Of a stretch of 64,000 bases of DNA, positions 11,950 to 51,158 are shown piece after piece. The notes beneath the pieces are model-generated. The model ran no database searches and was not told the DNA's origin. It worked only from the letters and a program-made list of their open reading frames with translations. Every line of letters starts with the position of its first letter. The stretch's first letter is position 1. This stretch comes from an uncultured Planctomycetaceae bacterium (lineage in GTDB: Bacteria > Planctomycetota > Planctomycetia > Isosphaerales > Isosphaeraceae), in assembly GCA_963833985.1 (NCBI GenBank), contig CAWIAD010000002.1, forward strand, positions 2,688,001 to 2,752,000. Reading direction: 5' to 3'. A program made the translations under genes and the position numbers.

Positions 11950-14056
11950 TCACGTCTTGCTTGAACCCAGTGCGGAGGCCACCGCTTCCACGCCCACAAC
12001 CGGGTCCAGGCAGGTCGAATTCTCGCAGATGTAGGTTGTGGTCCGGCTCTCACGGCTGGGCCGGTCGGCCAGCAGCGGGATCCGCTCGAGCAGGGTCCCG
12101 TCCTGGCCCGCGGCTGCGGGTGCGACCACTGCGCCTGGCTGGAAGCGGGCATGGACTGTCTCCAGGACCTTGCGGAACTCGTCCGGGTCCACACCGGCAA
12201 TGACGGCGATCTCGCGCCGGGGTGACAGCTCGAAATCCAGGGCGATCAGGCTCTGGCCGGCGGCCGCCGGAGCGTTCTTGATCACAGCCTTGACGGCTTC
12301 GAGCGCGGCCAGGCCGGAACCCCGCAGGTCCTCGCGGCCGGTCAGGGCGCCAAGCCGCAGCAGGGCCGTCGCGGCCATGGCATTGCCCGAGGGCGTCGCG
12401 TTGTCGAACAGGTCCTTCGTCCGCGCGATCAAGGCCTCATGGCTCTTCCCGGTGTAGAAGAAGCCACCGCGCTCGGCGTCGGCGAACTCGTCCATCATGA
12501 CCCCTGCCAGGTCGATGGCGGCCTCGATCCAGCGCGGCTCTCCCGAGGCCTCGTATAGCCGGGTCAGACCGTCAATGAAGTTCGCATAGTCGTCCAGGTA
12601 AGCGTTCAGCCGGGCCTGGCCATCCTTGAAGGTGTGCAGTAAACGGCCGTCCGGGGCGCGCAGCCGGTCGAGGATGAAGCCCGCGGCGCGCGCGGCCGCA
12701 TCGAGATAGCGTGGGGCCGCCAGCGCACGGCCCGCGACGGCCAGGGCCGCGATCGCCAGGCCGTTCCACGAGACCAGCACCTTCGTGTCCTTGTGGGGAG
12801 GAATGCGCTGGTCGCGCACGGCCAATAGCTGCGCGCGGCTGTCGGCCAGCTCAGCCGCCAGGTCGTCCTCGGTGCGCGACAGGAGCTTGGCCGCCTGGTC
12901 GATGGGCCGGGGCAGGTTGAGGATGTTCTGGCCCTCCCAGTTACCCGCCTCGGTCACGTCGTAAACGTAGCAGAAGGTCTTGCCGCGATCCGCACCCAGG
13001 ACGTCCCGGATCTGGCTTTGCGACCAGACGTAGTACTTCCCTTCCACGCCCTCGCTGTCGGCGTCCTCGGTGGCGTAGAAGCCGCCTTCGGGCGCGGTCA
13101 TCCGTTCCAGCAAGTAATCGAGTGTTTCCCGCGCCACCTGGTCCCAGCGCCAGGCCGGTGTGCTGGAAGGCCTCGACGTAGGCGGACGCAAGCAGCGCAT
13201 TGTCGTAGAGCATCTTCTCGAAATGAGGCACGAGCCAGCGTTCGTCGGTGGAGTAGCGCGCGAAGCCGCCGCCCAGGTGGTCGTAGATGCCTCCGCGGGC
13301 CATCTTGTCGAGCGTGAGCGTGACCGCGTGCAGCGCCTGGTCGTCTCCTTTGCGGGCGGCCTGGCGCAAGAGCACCTTCAGGTCCATGGGATGCGGGAAC
13401 TTGGGTGCCGAGCCGAACCCGCCGTGAAGCGCGTCGAAATTCTTGACCAGCGACCGGGCCGCCTGGTCGAGCTGGCCGGCGTGAAGCGGCTGCTCGCTCC
13501 CGGCCGCCAGCTCGCCCATGGTCCGCAGCCGCCCGGTCATGTCCGCGGCCGCGTCCAGGATCTCGTCCCGGCGCTCGTCCCAGGCCTTGTGCACGCTCAG
13601 GAGCACGCGTGGAAAGCCCGGCATGCCGCGGGCATCCGACGGCGGAAAATAGGTGCCTCCGTAGAACGGCTCGAGTCCGGGCGTGAGGAACACGGACATC
13701 GGCCAGCCGCCGTGCCCGGTCATCGCCTGCACCGCGTTCATGTAAATCTGGTCCAGGTCGGGCCGCTCCTCGCGATCCACCTTGATATTCACGAAGTGCG
13801 CGTTCATGATTGCCGCGATGTCCGCATTCTCGAAGCTTTCCCGCTCCATGACATGGCACCAGTGGCACGCCGAGTAGCCGATGGACAGGAAGATCGGCTT
13901 GTTCTCGCTCCGGGCGCGCTCGATCGCCTCCGGGCCCCAGGGATGCCAGTCCACCGGGTTGTGTGCGTGTTGCAGCAGGTACGGGCTCGTCTCGCCGGCG
14001 AGCCGGTTGGCCGGCCGGTCAGCCGGATGCAAGGCGTTCGTGTGCGTCGTTGCCAT
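11950..14056 (-). CDS. Thioredoxin-domain protein YyaL/SSP411 family (frameshift near 13155)
   Basis: [56 protein letters not shown] in the 5' [35 protein letters not shown] in the 3' ORF. Confidence 0.92.
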
Positions 14057-14383
14057 GGCAATCGTTCTCCTCGCGAGCGGGTGTGGCATGATCGGGAGCC
14101 GGCAGTGCATTGTAGAAAGGTTGGCCCGTGCGTCCATGAGCTGTCTGCCGGCGCCGCGGTCCACCGAGCACTACGCGACGGCAGCCGCTCCGCACGCACA
14201 CCGCGGCCCGCTCCGCGGTGCTGGCCAGAGAATCCTTCTCCTCCACCCGCCTGTGGATTGGCGACTGATTTCGGATCGCCAAGAACGGTGGCACTACCTG
14301 ACGAACGAATTGCTCCAGCAACTCGATCGTGGGCGGACCGTCGAGAACTGCTTGTCGTACCAGAACGTCGGTCTATGCGGGGG

Positions 14384-14548
14384 CTCCTCAAATGAGACGT
14401 CTCGCTTCACGCTGAGCCTATGGGAAGAACAGATTCGCGAAGGATCACCTGTTTTAGCGGTAGGGTGTGTCGAGCGCAGCGACGACGCACCGGTGTGGAA
14501 TCCGGAGCGGTGAACCGGTGCGTCGTCGCTGCGCTGGGTGCACCATAC
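14384..14548 (+). repeat. Unit copy 1: 76-bp leader + 89-bp inverted GTAG-REP doublet
   Basis: Ungapped alignment with 16897-17061 and 18629-18793; doublet 14460-14548 starts GTAGGGTGTGTCGAGCGCAGCGACGACGCACCG. Confidence 0.9.
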
Positions 14549-14550
14549 AG

Positions 14551-14780
14551 TCGGGCACATCTGGCTCCATCCGACTCGGTTCATGAGCGCCAGCGTGCAG
14601 CGTAACCGGCCCTTCGGCGGTGAGGACTGGGTCCACCAGACCAAAGTCGCGCCGGGACTGGTCTCCTCGCTCACCCTTCACGGCAATCCAGTCCGAAGGC
14701 CGTCCCGAAGGAGCTGGTTGACCACGCGTCACTTCCCCTGTCATCCAACCAGCCGGCGTGCCTCGAGAGGTCCCCCCCTC
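14551..14780 (+). pseudogene. Relic of the 3' end of a REP-associated/IS200-like (RAYT) transposase, copy 1
   Basis: Translates to SVQRNRPFGGEDWVHQTKVAPGLVSSL, resembling the 'SVxRGRPFGSEDWVxxTAxxLGLESTL' C-terminus I recall from planctomycete Y1 transposases. Closely similar to 17064-17300. Confidence 0.6.
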
Positions 14781-14878
14781 GGCTCCGTGCGTTGTCTTAT
14801 TCTCCGTTGCTATCGGAACCCGGCTGTGACCAATGCGAACGGTCTACACCGCACGGAAACGAGCGCTCTGTTCGCTAA

Positions 14879-16231
14879 GGCGAGCGGCAGGTCTTAGTTT
14901 CCCTGCTGCTCGGTGATTCTCGGTTTGATAGTGATGTCATACTTCGGCAGGGTCGCCGATCTTTCCAATCGAGCTTCGTACTGCTTCATCTCCTTGGCGG
15001 CGACTCGAACGCCATCGGGATACTCGCCGTGGAGGCGTTTCACGATCGGGTGCCGGCGCTTCCAGGTCATTCGTAGGGCGCATTGCAGGACCACCTTCAG
15101 GCAGTTCAGTAACACGCCGTTCCATTTCTTCTCCAGGGCCGACCAGCAGCGTTCAATCGGGTTGTATTTGCTGTGGTAGGGGGGATAGTACACCAACCGA
15201 ATCTCCAACCCCGACCAGTCGGCAAACTGGACCATCCGTTTCAGGAACTGGGTCCGCCGACCGGAGTTCTTGGGGCCGTTGTCCAGATAGATCACCAGGC
15301 GCTTGACATGCCCGAAGCCTGACCGGACCTGCAGCCACCACATGCGGAGCGCATCGGCCCAAGCGTCGCTGGTCTCGCGCGATCCGAACAGGAGCATCAA
15401 TACCCCGGTCACCCGCATCACGATGCCGAAAGGGACCAGCTTCTCCTTGGCTGGCGGATCGTGATCCCATCCCTTGGCCACTTGACCGTCGGCGGCGGTC
15501 CTGGTTTTTCCCCCCACGAGCGTAATCGCCCAATCCCACCTTCGCCTTGGTGTCCATGGAGATCTCCAGCGCCTCAGGATCGTCCCGAGCCTGTTGCTGC
15601 ACCTCCTTCACGTTGGCGAAGATCGCGTCGGTCTCCTTGGTCTTCTTCAGCGGCCTGCCCTTCTGAATCCGCTTGAGGCGGAAGTTCATGCGGTTGAGGA
15701 TGTCCCGCATGGTGCGCTCGCTGGGCAACGCGTCTCGGGGATAGCCCTTGTCAATCAAGGCTCCTCGCACCTCCGCCGCCGACAGGTTCATGTACCGTCG
15801 CGACGACTTCAGTTCCGGATCGGCGTAGGTATGGGGCTCGACGATCGCACGGATGTCCGCAGCCAGTTGCGGGTCCTTCTCTTCGCTGCGCAGCCGACCT
15901 CTCGCGACGAAATTCTCGAGACAGCGTATCCCTTGACGGGCCTCGTGCAGTCCTTTCAGGACCGTTTCTCGTCCCCAGCCGAAGCGTCGTTCAGCTTGGC
16001 GGGCGCTGCCTTCACAGAGTTCCGTGGCCACCTCGGCCATGAACAATCGGCGCTGGTATCCGGTCAGCCGTCTGGCTCCCGAACAGATCAAGGCGTCGAG
16101 GCACTCAGTGGATCCTTCCATGACGGTTCCCCTCCCTGGTGTACAGACGGCAACAGGCCAGGCTCTAGCCTTGCATCATCTCACAGAACGGGGAAGCTCA
16201 ATTCCGGGTAGATCTCGACGTGCCGGTCGCC
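14879..16231 (-). mobile_element. ISAzo13-family insertion sequence (1353 bp)
   Basis: Imperfect TIRs GGCGAGCGGCAGGTC (14879-14893) and GACGTGCCGGTCGCC (16217-16231), 13/15 match; 3-bp direct repeat TAA at 14876-14878 and 16232-16234. Confidence 0.88.
14894..16121 (-). CDS. ISAzo13-family DDE transposase in two ORFs joined at a G6A5 run (15505-15515)
   Basis: ORF1 RRLFMAEVA..WGRETV..ISMDTKAKV; ORF2 GWDHD..YLDNGP.NSGRRTQF..YYPPYHSKYNPIERCW. Confidence 0.92.
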
Positions 16232-16546
16232 TAAGGACGACAAATGAGCCAGGCAGGCGGTCCTCATGATGCCGCAGCAAGTGACGAACTCGCGCCAGCT
16301 TGGAGTGGCTGTCCGCGGGGTTCATGAGGAGCAGGACGATCCCATAGGCAGGGTGTTTCAGACGCACGACCAGTTCGCCGAAGTCTTTGTCTTCGGTCAG
16401 GAGTACCCGCTCTTGGTCGGCCGCCAGCTTCAACACCGTCTCGTCAGCCGCACCCGGAGCAATCTCCTTGACGTACAGAACGTCCACGCCGCTGTGACGC
16501 AGGCCATCCACCAGCAGAGCATCACAACATTCATCCGCGACGAACT

Positions 16547-16783
16547 TCACAGAGCCTCACCCGATGCGACCACAATGTCTTCATTCGCCAGGTGATCCGC
16601 GGCGAAGGCTGCCGCCGCCCGTATGTCTTCCTCTCTCAGGTGAGGATGGTGGACGAGGATTTGTTCGTCCGTCATCCCCTCGGCCAGTTTACGCAGGATC
16701 AGTTCCACCGTGATGCGCGTTCCCTTGATCACGGGTTTGCCGAACATGACCTTGGGGTCCACGCTGATGCGCTCATGAATCAT
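16547..16783 (-). CDS. DUF433 antitoxin
   Basis: RISVDPKVMFGKPVIKGTRITVELIL..LAEG.T..QIL..HPHL..EDIRAA; 4-bp overlap with the DUF5615 gene. Confidence 0.93.
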   Translation of the reverse strand: MIHERISVDPKVMFGKPVIKGTRITVELILRKLAEGMTDEQILVHHPHLREEDIRAAAAFAADHLANEDIVVASGEAL

Positions 16784-16896
16784 GGGGCCGTTCTCCCGCC
16801 TGGAGGAAACACCATCTGGCAGTTCTCTATACATTGTACCGCGGGGGCCGAAAGCCGGTAGCGTCCCGCGCGATAAGGGCGAAAAGTAAGGTAGGG

Positions 16897-17061
16897 CCCC
16901 GCAAAGGGCACGTTGCTCTTCATACTGAGCCTCTGGGAATAACATATTAACAACGCATCTTATTTATTGATGGTAGGGTGTGTCAAGCGCAGCGACGACG
17001 CACCGTTGGTGAATCCTGTGCCGTGAATCGGTGCGTCGTCGCTGCGCTTGACACACCCTAC
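16897..17061 (+). repeat. Unit copy 2: 76-bp leader + 89-bp inverted GTAG-REP doublet
   Basis: Arms 16973-17005 and 17029-17061 are perfect 33-bp reverse complements. Confidence 0.92.
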
Positions 17062-17063
17062 GC

Positions 17064-17320
17064 TCGGGCACTTCTGGCTCCATCCGACTCGGTTCATGAG
17101 CGCGAGCGTGCAGCGTAACAGGCCCTTCGGCGGTGAGGACTGGGTCCACCAGACGGCAGTCGCGCCGGGACTGGTCTCCTCGCTCACCAGCCCGGGGAAT
17201 CCGGTCCAGGACGCCTCTCCGAAGGATCTGGTTGATCACGGGTCGCTTCCCATGCTATCCAACATGCCGGCACGACTCACGATGTCCCCCTGGAATCCCT
17301 CGTCCCCCCTGGAATCCCTC
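17064..17320 (+). pseudogene. RAYT-like transposase 3' relic, copy 2, ending in TGTCCCCC with a short tandem duplication
   Basis: SVQRNRPFGGEDWVHQTAVAPGLVSSLTSPGNP; GTCCCCC(C)TGGAATCCCTC occurs twice at ~17284-17320. Confidence 0.6.
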
Positions 17321-17383
17321 GCAGTGAAGCATATCGCTCCCTGCTCCGGTTTGTCTTGCGCCCGAAACTTGCTATAGGAAGTC

Positions 17384-18527
17384 ATGGCGAAAAAACGTAC
17401 AGCCACTGGCCCGGCCCCCGTCCGGAGCGACAGCAGCACCTATGATGCCGTCCTGGCCAGCGTCACCGCGCTGCTGGAAGCCGCCCGCCATGCCGCGGCC
17501 CGCAGCGTCAACTCCGTCATCACGACCACGTACTGGGAGATCGGCAGGCGCATCGTCGAGGAGGAGCAACGCGGGCACGAGCGCGCCGCGTACGGCGCGC
17601 GGCTCATCGACCGCTTGTCCGATGACCTCATCCAGCGCTTCGGCCGCGGCTTCAGCAGGGTCAACCTCAAACAGATGCGAAGATTCTACCTGGAATGGAG
17701 CGCCCCCAAGATTGGTCAGACAGCGTCTGCCGAATTCGCAGGGGTCGTGCCCTTGCCGTCAGCGTCAGTCCACCCGCTGTTTTCCGCTCTCCTGGTCCCA
17801 CTATGTCAGGTTGCTCTCGGTGGAGAAGCACCCGGCCCGCCTCTTCTACGAGGCCGAAGCCTTGCGCGGCGGATGGACCGTCCGCCAGCTTGACCGCTAG
17901 ATTGGCACCCAGTTCTACGAGCGCACCCTGCTCTCCCGCGACAAGGCTGCCGTGCTCACGAAGGGGCAGAGGCCCAAGCCCGAAGATGCCTTGACCCCCG
18001 AGGAAGAAATCAAGGATCCCTTCCTGCTCGAATTCCTCGATCTGAAAGACGAATATTCCGAGAGCGATCTTGAAGACGCCCTGATCCGCCACCTGGAATC
18101 CTTCCTGCTGGAATTGGGCGATGATTTCGCCTTCGTCGGACGTCAGCGCCGCCTACGCATTGACGACGAGTGGTATCGCGTCGATCTTGTATTCTTCCAT
18201 CGCCGCCTGCGCTGCCTCGTTCTCATCGACTTGAAACTCGGTAAGCTCACGCCAGGCGACGCCGGCCAAATGCACCTCTACTTATCCTACGCCCGCGAGC
18301 ACTGGACCCGCCCCGACGAGAGTCCCCCGGTCGGATTGATTCTTTGTGCCGAGCACCACGCAGGGGTGGCCAGATATGCCCTCGAAGGGTTGCCCAACAA
18401 GGTGCTGGCGGCGCGGTACCGTACTGCCCTGCCGAGCGAGGAAACGCTGGCCGCAGAGGTCGAACGCACGCGCAAGATGCTGGAGGCACGCCCCAAACGC
18501 GCCTCCAAAAAACCAAGGGAGCGCTGA
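17384..18527 (+). pseudogene. yhcG: YhcG/DUF1016 PD-(D/E)XK nuclease-domain protein, frameshift near 17765 and in-frame TAG at 17898-17900
   Basis: YWEIGRRIVEEEQ.G..RA.YG, GRGFS..NL..MR.FY, LSWSHY, WTVRQLDR*I, IKDPFLLEFL, FLLELG..FAFVGRQ, DLVFFHRRLRCLVLIDLK. Confidence 0.88.
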
Positions 18528-18628
18528 TCGTCCCCACGTGGTTGACCGGGTCGCAGACGATCTATGTGTTCGCCGCCGTGCCCGAGCCGCCGATCGTCCG
18601 CGAGATCGACGTGTCGCGGTTACCCAGT

Positions 18629-18879
18629 CCCCGCAAAGAACTCGTTGCGCTTCATGCTGAGCCAATGGGAATAACTGGTTAACGAAGCATCACCTGTATT
18701 GTTGGTAGGCTGTGCCCAGCGCAGCGACGTCGCACCGGTGGGGAAACCAGGGCCGTGAATCGGTGTGTCGTCGCTGCGCTCGACACACCCTACGAGCCAG
18801 CATCGGTGCCTCGTCGCTGCGCTCGACACGACCTGCGAGCCAGAATCGGTGCGTCGTCGCTGCGCTCGACGCGCCCTAC
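18629..18879 (+). repeat. Unit copy 3 (leader + REP doublet 18705-18793) followed by two further tandem REP arms
   Basis: Extra CGGTGC.TCGTCGCTGCGCTCGAC.CG.CCT.C arms at 18804-18836 and 18847-18879. Confidence 0.9.
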
Positions 18880-47332: not shown

Positions 47333-47810
<478 letters not shown>

Positions 47811-47913: not shown

Positions 47914-49372
47914 ATGGAACGGCACCTCGCGCTCCGCCTGGCCCCGGTGGCCATCACCGTTCTGGCCGTCGTGCCATTGCCCGCGGCATACGGTCAACAA
48001 AGAAACCGTCCTGGTGCCGAAGCCCGAATGAGTGCTCCGGCCATGGAGCGTCGCGGCCAGCCCGACGCCGTGGTCCAGGGCGCCCTGCGCGCAACCCCTA
48101 CACGGCGCCTTATCCCATCTCGGCGCTCTGGCGGAACGGTAGGCTGGTGCTGGCGGGCCGGGTCGGCACGAAGGTCATTCACGATATGGCCGTTCGTACC
48201 GTGATCGACCTGGGCTATCCGCTCCGTGACGACCTGGTCATCGACACCGCACTGGCTCACCAGGTGGCGATGGCACAGACGGCGATGGCGCAGGCGGCCT
48301 GGGCCGGCGGGGCGGCTTCGGGGGCTCCCGTGGCCGGTGGAGTGGTCGGAGCGTCCGCGCCCTATGTCGTCTATCCGCCTCCGCTTTTCGGCCGAGTCGA
48401 CGATCCGTTCTTCGGGTTCGAGCCTCCGCTGGTGTCGTTCCCGCCCTGGGCGACCTCCGGCAATCCGGATCCGCGCCTGAACCGCGTGGGGCTGATGGCC
48501 CCCGGGGCCACGCCAGGTGCAAATGGACCAGCGCGGCCGGCCCAGGAAGGAGCAGCCCAGGGGCCGATCAAGGGCCGCTTGCAGCTCACCGTGGACATGG
48601 CGGGTCAGGTTCACCTGAGCGGTGAAGTGGCCAGCGAACAGGACAAGCAACTGATCGAGGAGGAAGCCAGGAACACTCCGGGAGTGAGTCATGTGTACAG
48701 CGAGCTTCGGGTCGCCGCGGCACCGGGTTCCGAGCTCCCACCGCCGCCACCGCAGCCAGTCCTCGTTCCCGACCAGCAGCAACCGCTCGCTGCGCCCGCC
48801 GGGCATCAGGAACCGCCGGCTCCGCCCCGGCCCGCGCCGCAGCGCCGGTGCAGGACCCCCAATCTCGCTCCAACCCGCCGCAGCCGCTGAAGCCGGACCT
48901 GTCCATGGCGCGCGATGCTCAGAAGCTCACGAGGCGCGTCGCCGAGGCGCTTGCGCGTCGCGGCCCGCTGGCTGACCAGGCGATCGCGGTGCAATCGCAT
49001 GAGGACATCGTGACACTTTCGGGGAACGTCACCTCGGCCTACGAGGCGATGCTCGCCTACCGCACCGTCGAGCAGACGCCTGGCGTGCGCGAGGTCGTCG
49101 ACCAGTTGCAGTTCCAGGTTCCCGACGAGGACCATCCCAATCCACTCCGTCAGCAAGGCCGTCCCGAAGACCTGGAGCCGTACCTGATCTCACAGGTCCG
49201 CCGCCACGTGGGCGACCTGGCGCACATCGATCGGCTCAAGGTGCGCGGGGATCGCCTGGAAATCGAGGGGACCATCTCCGACGGCCAGGATGCCGGCCGG
49301 TTGAAGGCGATCCTGCGTTCGATGCCCCTGCTGCGCGATTTTCATCTCGATGCGACCTTTCGTCCCGAATGA
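47914..49372 (+). CDS. Multi-BON-domain secreted protein (frameshifts near 48095 and 48850)
   Basis: Signal peptide; LVLAGRV, VHLSGEV...TPGVSHVYSEL, VTLSGNV...TPGVREVVDQL, LEIEGTI. Confidence 0.8.
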
Positions 49373-49396
49373 CGCGCCCGCGGAATCGGAGCGGGC
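49237..49396 (+). repeat. 160-bp direct repeat, left copy (3' end of BON gene + downstream hairpin)
   Basis: Matches 50864-51023 with a few substitutions. Confidence 0.93.
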
Positions 49397-49559
49397 GATC
49401 TCTCGACTTCATTTCGACTATATGTCCATAGCCTTGTTTTTACCTGTTGGGTTTACCTCGGTGACCAGTTGAACTCTCCGCGATTTCGTTCCCTGACTTC
49501 AAAGCCGAGATCGAGGGCAACGCGTTATCGCCCACACCGGGCGAGAAAGCCTCCTCAAC

Positions 49560-50117
49560 TCAGGCGGGATCAGTTTGAAACGGCTCGGCCCCGATTGGTG
49601 GCAACTGGAGCTTGCGGATGACGCTTATCGAGAGGAAGAGGTGGTTCGGATCGTCGATCAAGGGGATGAAGCCGAACCTCAGGTAGAACTGGCGGGCCGC
49701 ATCATCAATGGCATGAACCTCCACTGCCCGAACGCCGACATGCTCAGCGAGGTGCTGTGCACGCCGTAATGCGTCGATCAGAAGCAGAGAGCCGAGACCT
49801 TGGCCTTGAGCCGAGCGGTCTACAGCCAGTCGTCCGAGGAGCACGACGGGGACATCCAGCCGGGGCAGCCCCTTCGCCTCATCGGCAGGGAGGGCCTTGT
49901 AAGTGACATGGTGGTTCGAGATGGCGTAGTAACCGACCACGATCTGGTCAGCAGACCTCGTGGCGACGTAGGTACGAGCCAGGTCTCGCTTCTCGAACTG
50001 GCTGGCTCTCTGCTTCAACCAGTCGGTCAAGATCGGGTTCCCGCAGTCGAACACCCTGCGATCGTGGCTTGACCCGAGCCGTTCGATCGTCCAGTCCTTG
50101 CTCGGTGGCTCAGCCAA
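49560..50117 (-). CDS. GNAT-family acetyltransferase toxin (AtaT/TacT-like)
   Basis: HDRRVFDCGN..L..WL, VVGYY, PVVLLGRLAVD..QGQGLG..LLIDAL, AIDD.A..FY..FGF; likely TTG start overlapping the antitoxin stop. Confidence 0.92.
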   Translation of the reverse strand: MAEPPSKDWTIERLGSSHDRRVFDCGNPILTDWLKQRASQFEKRDLARTYVATRSADQIVVGYYAISNHHVTYKALPADEAKGLPRLDVPVVLLGRLAVDRSAQGQGLGSLLLIDALRRAQHLAEHVGVRAVEVHAIDDAARQFYLRFGFIPLIDDPNHLFLSISVIRKLQLPPIGAEPFQTDPA

Positions 50118-50388
50118 GAGTCTTCTTGTACCTCTTGGCGGCTCTGACGAGTGCGGCATTGGGCCGAGTTTCAGCGTCGTCCAGGAGGGCGATAAAGCGG
50201 TCCCGATCACGGTCGCTCAGCGTCGTCACATTCCGCTGCTCGATGACCGAACGGGCCTGCTGGACGAGCGTGCTGACGGCAAAGTCGCTCACCGACTGCC
50301 CGAGGGATACGGCAGCTTCCTCGATCACTTCCTTGAGGTCGGCAGGGAGCCGGAAGTTCAGTCGGGCATCCCTTGCTCCGGTTGCCAT
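50110..50388 (-). CDS. DUF1778 (RHH) antitoxin (AtaR/TacA-like)
   Basis: RLNFRL...K..IEEAA...GQSVSDF...LSDRDRDRF..LLD....PN.AL. Confidence 0.93.
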   Translation of the reverse strand: MATGARDARLNFRLPADLKEVIEEAAVSLGQSVSDFAVSTLVQQARSVIEQRNVTTLSDRDRDRFIALLDDAETRPNAALVRAAKRYKKTLG

Positions 50389-50723
50389 GTTTCACCTCGG
50401 TCTCGCGCCGTCGTATAAGCGGACTTCCACACGATCATTTTAACGCGTCGTGTGGCAATCTGCCACCCACAGGAGAGAGAGAGTGTGTGGAGAGAGGGCG
50501 AGTAGAGAGGGGACAGTCAATGCGGTCGACTGGTGGAACACCCGCAAGATCAGATCGCCGACCTTTGCGCCGTAGACTCACCTCGACGGTGCGGTGCGCA
50601 GGCTCTCTGTCCATTCGGTCGCTTGTGATAACCTTCGCGCGCCGCGAGGGTCAGGTCGCGCGCGAAGGTCCGACCCCGCCTCAACCCGCGTGGGGCATTC
50701 CGCCGCCCGGGCGGGATGAAACT

Positions 50724-50854
50724 CGCCGGGCCTGGTCTGCTCGCTCACCATCCCGGGGAATCCAGTCGAAGAGGCCGTGCCGAAGGAAGTCGGTTGATGA
50801 CGGGTCGCCCCCCCTCTCATCCAACCTGCCGGCGTGCTTCACCATGTCCCCCTC
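50724..50854 (+). pseudogene. Third, shorter copy of the RAYT-like 3' relic, ending TGTCCCCCTC
   Basis: cgccgggcctggtctgctcgctcaccatcccggggaatccagtc...tccaacctgccggc...atgtccccct aligns with 17163-17291 and 14650-14779. Confidence 0.7.
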
Positions 50855-50863
50855 AAGTCTCCC

Positions 50864-51023
50864 CAAGGCACGCGGGGATCGCCTGGAAATCGAGGGGACC
50901 ATCTCCGACGGCCAGGATGCCGGTCGGTTGAAGGCGATCCTGCGTTCGATGCCCCTGCTGCGCGACTTTCATCTCGATGCGACATTTCGTCCCGAATGAC
51001 GCGCCCGCCGGATCGGAGCGGGC
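50864..51023 (+). repeat. 160-bp direct repeat, right copy
   Basis: Encodes the same RGDRLEIEGTIS...DATFRPE* as the BON gene end. Confidence 0.93.
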
Positions 51024-51158
51024 TCTCGCTCCTCGTGTCGAGGTCCGCAGAGCCGTGCTGGCCGGTCTGAAGGTGGGGCGTTATAATCGACGCTTTGCCG
51101 AGAATGGGGCGGCCGCTCGGAGGACGACCGCGCAGCCCGCTGGAGAGGAGTGTGGAGG

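Follow-up and report, generated by a model that had tools for sequence, protein, structure and literature searches.

A repeat array with toxin-antitoxin and nuclease cargo in an Isosphaeraceae genome and its possible origin by successive single crossovers

This study concerns a repeat array at positions 14,384 to 18,879 of a 64,000-nt stretch of DNA (the window) from an uncultured Planctomycetaceae bacterium of the family Isosphaeraceae (GenBank GCA_963833985.1, contig CAWIAD010000002.1), in which three copies of a 165-nt unit, each a leader followed by a doublet of repetitive extragenic palindromes (REPs), are separated by a DUF433/DUF5615 toxin-antitoxin (TA) pair and by a yhcG nuclease gene. 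The locus is one ordinary example of a genome-wide pattern in which a long repeat flanks about a third of the TA loci, and we consider it probable, at roughly 0.6, that it was built by two successive integrase-free integrations of small donor circles, each by a single crossover. The mobility of chromosomal TA and restriction modules that have neither an integrase nor a transposase calls for an explanation. The present data recast "long target duplication" as a testable single-crossover model, in which a low ratio of nonsynonymous to synonymous substitution rates (dN/dS) suggests that the "duplicated target" is the donor's allele, and they explain, without an integron, integron-looking arrays that are easily mistaken for new site-specific systems.

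Structure of the locus and its site in relatives

The genome (G000; 10.2 Mb, 96% complete) consists of two contigs, C1 and C2, and the window is C2:2688001-2752000. The array has the following features, in window positions (TIR, terminal inverted repeat; REPIN, REP doublet forming a hairpin; IS, insertion sequence).

14384-14548, plus strand: unit copy 1, the most diverged; 76-nt non-coding leader and 89-nt GTAG REP doublet (REPIN)
14549-14780, plus strand: relic 1, the remains of a TIRYT-type Y1 transposase: coding sequence for its C-terminus and a TIR-like right end
14878-16233, minus strand: ISAzo13-family IS (PF07592), recent and multi-copy; ends approximate
16176-16550, minus strand: DUF5615 (PIN-like) toxin gene, its open reading frame now ending within the IS
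16547-16783, minus strand: DUF433 antitoxin gene
16897-17061, plus strand: unit copy 2, leader and REPIN, with arms perfect over 33 bp
17062-17290, plus strand: relic 2, a TIRYT tail and TIR-like end
17384-18527, plus strand: yhcG (DUF1016_N and YhcG_C; PD-(D/E)XK nuclease)
18528-18628, minus strand: internal fragment of an RHS/YD-repeat gene, the ragged end of insert 2
18629-18793, plus strand: unit copy 3, without a relic after it
18802-18879, minus strand: two more tandem REP arms with a 43-nt period

The units are ungapped direct copies of 165 nt each, starting at 14384, 16897 and 18629, and they match one another at 126, 129 and 137 of 165 nt (76-83% identity); the 76-nt leader taken alone matches at 50, 56 and 59 positions (binomial p 1e-13 to 1e-21). 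An earlier note on this DNA had described three such copies with different cargo in each interval, which was borne out, as was its figure of 1157 bp for the first interval once the IS is subtracted (2513 - 1356 = 1157, the unit spacings being 2513 and 1732 nt), and Pfam matches agreed with the cargo it named; the leader start that it quoted for copy 1 needed correction, as it reads CTCCTCAAAT instead of CCCCGCAAAG. Every unit closes with the 89-nt head-to-head doublet, which folds into a single long hairpin (z -4 to -14) ending in GTAG...CTAC; GTAG-tagged inverted arms, a hairpin and dispersal in the genome are the features of a REPIN. The left boundary of all three units lies within about 3 nt of one point, and no convincing homology was found upstream of it.

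The leader showed no codon signal (variable sites 10/11/10 by codon position), and in all three copies it folded no better than shuffled sequences. A coding relic, first suggested by eye, was ruled out by the unbiased variable sites and an empty blastx search, and an RNA was rejected, as Rfam gave no family at the gathering score, just hairpin-like miRNA models, and there was no folding signal.

The IS entered the last ~10 codons of the DUF5615 toxin gene and has at least nine further copies at 99-100% identity among the matches listed. The yhcG gene is broken in the assembly, where its reading frame changes and a TAG lies in frame; yyaL (11950-14058) is likewise split by a frameshift and is intact in the relatives G001 and G002. 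The yyaL split is probably an assembly error, which bears also on the breaks in yhcG. The RHS fragment (~100 nt), whose identity with RHS genes at two distant loci reaches 85%, starts at the yhcG stop and stops exactly at unit copy 3.

The island is an insertion relative to related genomes, at a genus-wide hot spot. The downstream gene is present in 7 of 14 genus genomes, and five relatives with upstream DNA were compared: the site is empty (~250 nt) in G010 and G013, and it holds unrelated inserts in G001, G002 and G011 without leader, REP or relic. The earlier note was right in so far as this site acquired different accessory cargo stepwise. As these relatives lack the unit altogether, no single-copy repeat is seen there. 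The inserts, named by eye, carry a PadR-like and a glyoxalase-like gene (L036), a DUF1559-like pair (L037), and a kinase, an ECF-like and a DUF1559-like gene (L038).

Repeat-flanked toxin-antitoxin loci in the genome

A scan of the genome for direct repeats 0.35-7 kb apart found many of them around TA genes, and for the census 54 TA/yhcG loci were then built from Pfam matches; DUF5615, Phd and ParE matches counted as loci of their own only if their partner was not yet in the list, and matches less than 1.2 kb apart were merged. Flanking direct repeats were present at 19 of the 54 loci, this one included, compared with 4 of 260 control genes (p 8e-13), which were random size-matched small genes out of 1163 and of whose four positives two look antitoxin-like by eye. 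When only repeats with at most three genome copies were counted, the figures were 14/54 and 2/260. The repeats measure 63-406 bp at 76-99% identity and are mutually unrelated, except that three have dispersed-repeat pieces in common; a REP arm of the unit's family was flagged in 2 of the 19 and the relic in 1. Four other loci have at least three copies with different cargo in each interval and consist of unrelated DNA; they are given here with a further case from the window.

L172:1818-4406 (G000:C1:2696317-2698905): 213-bp kinase-gene tail in three copies, with TA-like pairs that differ between the intervals and without a REP
G000:C1:1162700-1169315: dprA, after which its 3' end recurs in three or more spare copies (79-85%) separated by different genes
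L174: Y1-transposase tail array, three copies, different cargo
L175: dispersed-repeat array, three copies, different cargo
Window 49237-51031: GNAT/TacA pair and TIRYT relic tail between 168-bp direct repeats (49237-49404 and 50864-51031; 94%)

The repeats of the last locus duplicate the 3' end of a host gene and contain no REP or leader. This gene end is covered in 8 of 9 relatives examined and is single-copy in each, as in the empty sites known from insertion with long target duplication, and the GNAT/TacA pair has homologues of 75-78% identity at other loci in G002, G005 and G006.

When one of the repeat copies falls within a host gene, the layout is usually a full gene, cargo and a 3' fragment, or a 5' fragment, cargo and a full gene, with an exception at C2:146276. 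Such layouts fit a single crossover that spares the host gene. Several inserts end in broken foreign genes, namely RHS at this locus, an hsdM start at L180 and an unrelated N-terminus on a fabF tail at L064, which fits circles closed by an illegitimate junction. At L064:3265-3744 this N-terminus, kinase-start-like by eye, forms an in-frame fusion with the duplicated fabF tail at the insertion junction.

Where the repeats are coding, the live and spare copies could be compared. After excluding two loci without TA-like cargo and one with both copies in paralogues, dN/dS across 12 accessory loci (659 codons) was 0.33 (95% confidence interval 0.24-0.44); three dprA tails gave 0.11 (0.07-0.17) and two kinase tails 0.18 (0.10-0.31). 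Neutral decay of a local duplicate would be expected to give about 0.55. The values are well below this, and therefore the spare copy likely evolved within a working gene of another lineage; at loci with coding repeats, it is likely to derive from the donor's working gene, as judged from substitution patterns.

Proposed origin by serial single crossover

Based on this evidence, a donor circle that brings cargo together with a unit copy would cross once with a resident unit, and each such crossover would add one repeat and leave the host genes whole. Circles may arise in a related donor by an illegitimate or transposase-made junction, and after entering the cell they could be integrated by host homologous recombination. 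At this locus the homology used would have been 165 bp in one event, the earlier or the later, and about 395 bp in the other. The REPIN and its captured flank would serve as portable homology and not as a recognition site, and TA addiction would select against loop-out. For this non-coding unit, the model is applied by analogy with the loci that have coding repeats. The genome has a ComEC gene (split in two frames) and a DprA gene; their presence is common and only permissive.

Several observations weigh against this origin. The common left boundary would rarely be expected from independent random junctions, so that the model has to assume a mobile unit that already existed and had a fixed end; a fourth leader, and the 25 REP loci with shared flanks described below, give this some support. 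Neither a circle nor a same-species empty site was observed. At 4 of the 12 accessory loci pN/pS is 0.55-1.7, the excess of synonymous codons (80/157 vs 44% expected) is marginal (p 0.047), and the leader and relics have no codon signal (between the relics, 3 synonymous and 4 non-synonymous codons). In relatives, DUF433 loci with such repeats number 3 of 40, chosen from 181 matches for strong score and long contig, with none among 55 control windows (hand-calculated p about 0.07), and some census repeats may be paralogue fragments (C1:168597, C2:146839). Short-read assemblies of relatives may break at such repeats, and G000 may also be unusual; a clean case is present in G001, an assembly of 3 contigs that is 99% complete (L092; 106 bp, 96%).

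Local amplification as a possible alternative, and the REP family

The leading alternative, which we regard as rather unlikely, is local amplification, in which the REPIN and captured flanks were duplicated in place, with the TA pair, yhcG, RHS fragment and IS landing independently by illegitimate recombination, or in which target duplications arose as identical copies at insertion and diverged later. It accounts for the common left boundary, and the hot spot with unrelated inserts in G001, G002 and G011 is in keeping with independent landings. The REP family also speaks for it: 133 arms lie at 66 loci, including 15 head-to-head doublets, and at 25 of these loci at least 50 nt of 5' flank are common to another REP locus, which indicates that co-copying of REP and flank is routine in this genome; the accessible text of PMC3733652 likewise describes REP clusters reiterated together with flanking DNA. 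However, local amplification leaves the TA enrichment of REP-free repeats unexplained, and the dN/dS at coding repeats is well below that of a decaying duplicate.

Within the genome, blastn found three copies of the leader, and at C2:6101136, some 120 nt away from a REP arm, there is a fourth homologue, a weak one (E 3.6e-5). Searches of limited sensitivity did not recover the unit from the 120 other genomes of the family: blastn against 121 genomes (best five candidates per genome) returned the REP and two short relic pieces only. The exact leader pattern gave no match in two collections, one of metagenome contigs and one of genome contigs. A sequence-only leader model gave seven weak non-self matches (E 4.5e-4 to 0.01), which were discarded, as each of them falls in a coding gene, ABC-transporter-like or other. 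A candidate "empty cassette", made up of a relic, a partial leader and a REP at C2:4771723, resembles copy 1 only (p 0.0015), not copies 2 and 3, and was not used.

A related GTAG REP variant with a 35-nt arm occurs in six tandem copies at window positions 47333-47800. Separately, C1:880349-880813 and C2:3081372-3081832 each hold a ~430-bp segment bounded by two REP arms that face outward; the ends match between these two distant loci, and the segment is possibly a REP-bounded mini-element.

Enzyme-mediated docking as a less likely alternative, and the transposase relics

Unit copies 1 and 2 continue into a relic of ~230 nt, the two being 85% identical. The earlier note had read it as a remnant of a REP-associated tyrosine transposase (RAYT); a transposase tail is indeed present, and it belongs to the TIR-flanked Y1 type (TIRYT) rather than to a REP-flanked RAYT, a subclass call that rests on the TIR motif and the lack of REPs, not on a tree. 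The relic end approximates the reverse complement of a GGGGWSAS-like motif (7/8 in relic 2). The note had proposed to look for an intact enzyme with a matching C-terminus; by blastx, the best intact match of the relic is a TIR-flanked Y1 gene, located at C2:6400696 (E 1e-6, 42% over 45 aa). These features resemble TIRtrons and their TIRYTs (subclass 2.1, or RAYT group 1), whose GGGGWSAS motif is described in the available part of PMC3733652; unlike a TIRYT, the relic is only a ~230-nt tail without the catalytic domain. The consulted text of PMC6006769 also states that no REPs lie beside subclass 2.1 genes. RAYT-like genes occur at C1:530064 and C2:1566525, flanked by related REP variants that differ from the unit's REP.

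These enzymes bear on a weakened docking-site model, in which a Y1 HUH enzyme acting in trans, a REP-flanked RAYT or a TIRYT, would cleave single strands at the foot of the REPIN or at the TIR and so excise or insert cargo. We hold this model to be improbable, and we are equally doubtful of the wider proposal that domesticated Y1 HUH transposases acting in trans nick REPIN feet and TIRs and release cargo circles that re-dock at leader-REPIN units; in this integrase-free, integron-like TA capture array, REPINs and the ends of TIRYTs would be entry points that can be programmed. The shorter shared length at the locus (165 bp) does stop at the REPIN foot and the longer one (~395 bp) close to the TIR-like end, the junction at 50852-50864 lies ~12 nt beyond the TIR-like end of the relic there, both genomic yhcG copies adjoin relic ends, and intact REP-flanked and TIR-flanked Y1 genes are present in the genome. 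The relic profile matches in 75 of 121 family genomes and 12 times in this one (eight of the 12 being in its training set), and 6/12 matches, or 4/10 independent loci, lie within 2.5 kb of a TA gene, one TA in the latter count having been added after being seen; in these small numbers, the closeness of relics to TA genes exceeds chance. Each of the three intact TIR-flanked enzymes has a TA gene within ~1.5 kb, and tandem TIRYT copies surround cargo in relatives (Phd/PIN in L153). On the other hand, no REP arm was flagged in 17 of the 19 census repeats and no relic in 18, REP loci are not enriched for TA genes, REP and relic go with different subclasses of enzyme, the unit was not recovered in the family genomes (with the limited sensitivity given above) or by exact pattern in the two collections, and the cargo ends are ragged.

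The second yhcG, an N-terminal piece, lies between two relic ends at L044 (G000:C2:6398157-6402563), 2 kb from the intact TIRYT, after which a Phd/PIN pair follows. In relatives (L152-L160, L166), TIR-flanked Y1 elements are often tandem direct copies around cargo, in a composite-transposon-like arrangement. More than 10 copies of a Y1-like transposase of ~350 aa, scoring just below the PF01797 cut-off, are spread over C1 and C2.

Integron-like and artefactual readings

The earlier note had proposed an integron-like array with a dedicated attC-like site serviced by a RAYT. This was unsupported, as only 2 of the 19 repeats were flagged with a REP arm, other arrays use unrelated DNA and the genome-wide tabulation of the REP found it at 66 loci without TA enrichment (a TA gene lies within 2.5 kb of 6/66 loci, this locus accounting for three, vs 178/3786 intergenic gaps). 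Integron attC sites are recognised by consensus box features. The TA-locus repeats are mutually unrelated and not a single site family with such core boxes, and instead of clean gene-plus-site cassettes, insert 2 ends in an RHS fragment. For the integron integrase IntI (TIGR02249), none of 14 matches in the genome was above the cut-off, and the best open reading frame lacks model positions 179-233. The array is like integrons and super-integrons in separating TA-rich cargo by repeats, as far as the accessible text of PMC2654758 describes them, and differs in having no IntI, no attC boxes, no site common to the arrays and ragged cargo ends. On present evidence, the locus is likely not an integron analogue.

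An assembly artefact, in which the long-read metagenome assembly joined strain haplotypes end to end, is very improbable: frameshifts in conserved genes such as yyaL do suggest read errors, the repeat-flanked pattern is far commoner here than in relatives and no public run with this strain was found, but the copies are 17-24% apart with distinct flanks and the same layout occurs in G001 (L092). A few repeats at 98-99% identity could be artefacts. Of 22 public runs, 20 contained 7-16% of the words; the four that were mapped gave mainly the IS and yyaL of other organisms and no piece spanning the locus.

Comparison with known systems

The locus works like insertion with long target duplication, but with TA instead of restriction-modification (RM) genes. 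Insertion with long target duplication was reportedly treated in earlier work by Nobusato (2000). The shared features are integrase-free accessory genes, long, variable and locus-specific direct repeats and empty sites in relatives, as given in the available part of Furuta, Abe and Kobayashi (2010, PMC2853133); the repeats there run from tens to ~420 bp, with no other mobile element in the portions consulted of that report and of PMC3874152. Here the insert is below 20 kb, the repeats exceed 30 bp and no integrase lies inside, the later ISAzo13 aside. The definition in the accessible text of PMC2853133 includes restriction and modification genes, whereas the cargo here is a type II TA pair and a yhcG nuclease. 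In contrast to the RM case, the events are stacked, arrays reach at least three copies, the copies are 76-98% identical, and the synonymous-biased divergence suggests a donor-derived copy and not a true duplication.

Serial single crossovers that leave one spare, homologous segment per insert underlie the rhs/cdiA orphan arrays, formed by terminal displacement, and IS26-type translocatable units. The loci described here differ from both: they are anchored in the ends of housekeeping genes or in intergenic repeats, and they carry TA cargo.

A ParDE-like TA module of Microcystis similarly lies between two ~150-bp (152-bp) direct repeats containing an inverted repeat; as far as the consulted text of PMC7935541 goes, it is a single case with identical repeats and no mechanism described. 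In the literature searched, where most subscription papers were outside reach, no genome-wide account of repeat-flanked TA loci, or one for planctomycetes, was found.

With REP/REPIN-RAYT systems, as described in the available parts of PMC3733652, PMC5581495 and PMC6006769, the unit shares GTAG-tagged arms, head-to-head doublets, a conserved spacer length, a dispersed family and REP-flanked RAYT genes in the genome. It differs in that gene cargo is not described for those systems in these parts, and the REPIN here is one repeat among many. For E. coli REP regions, the accessible portion of 10.1101/2024.07.17.603846 reports no circles.

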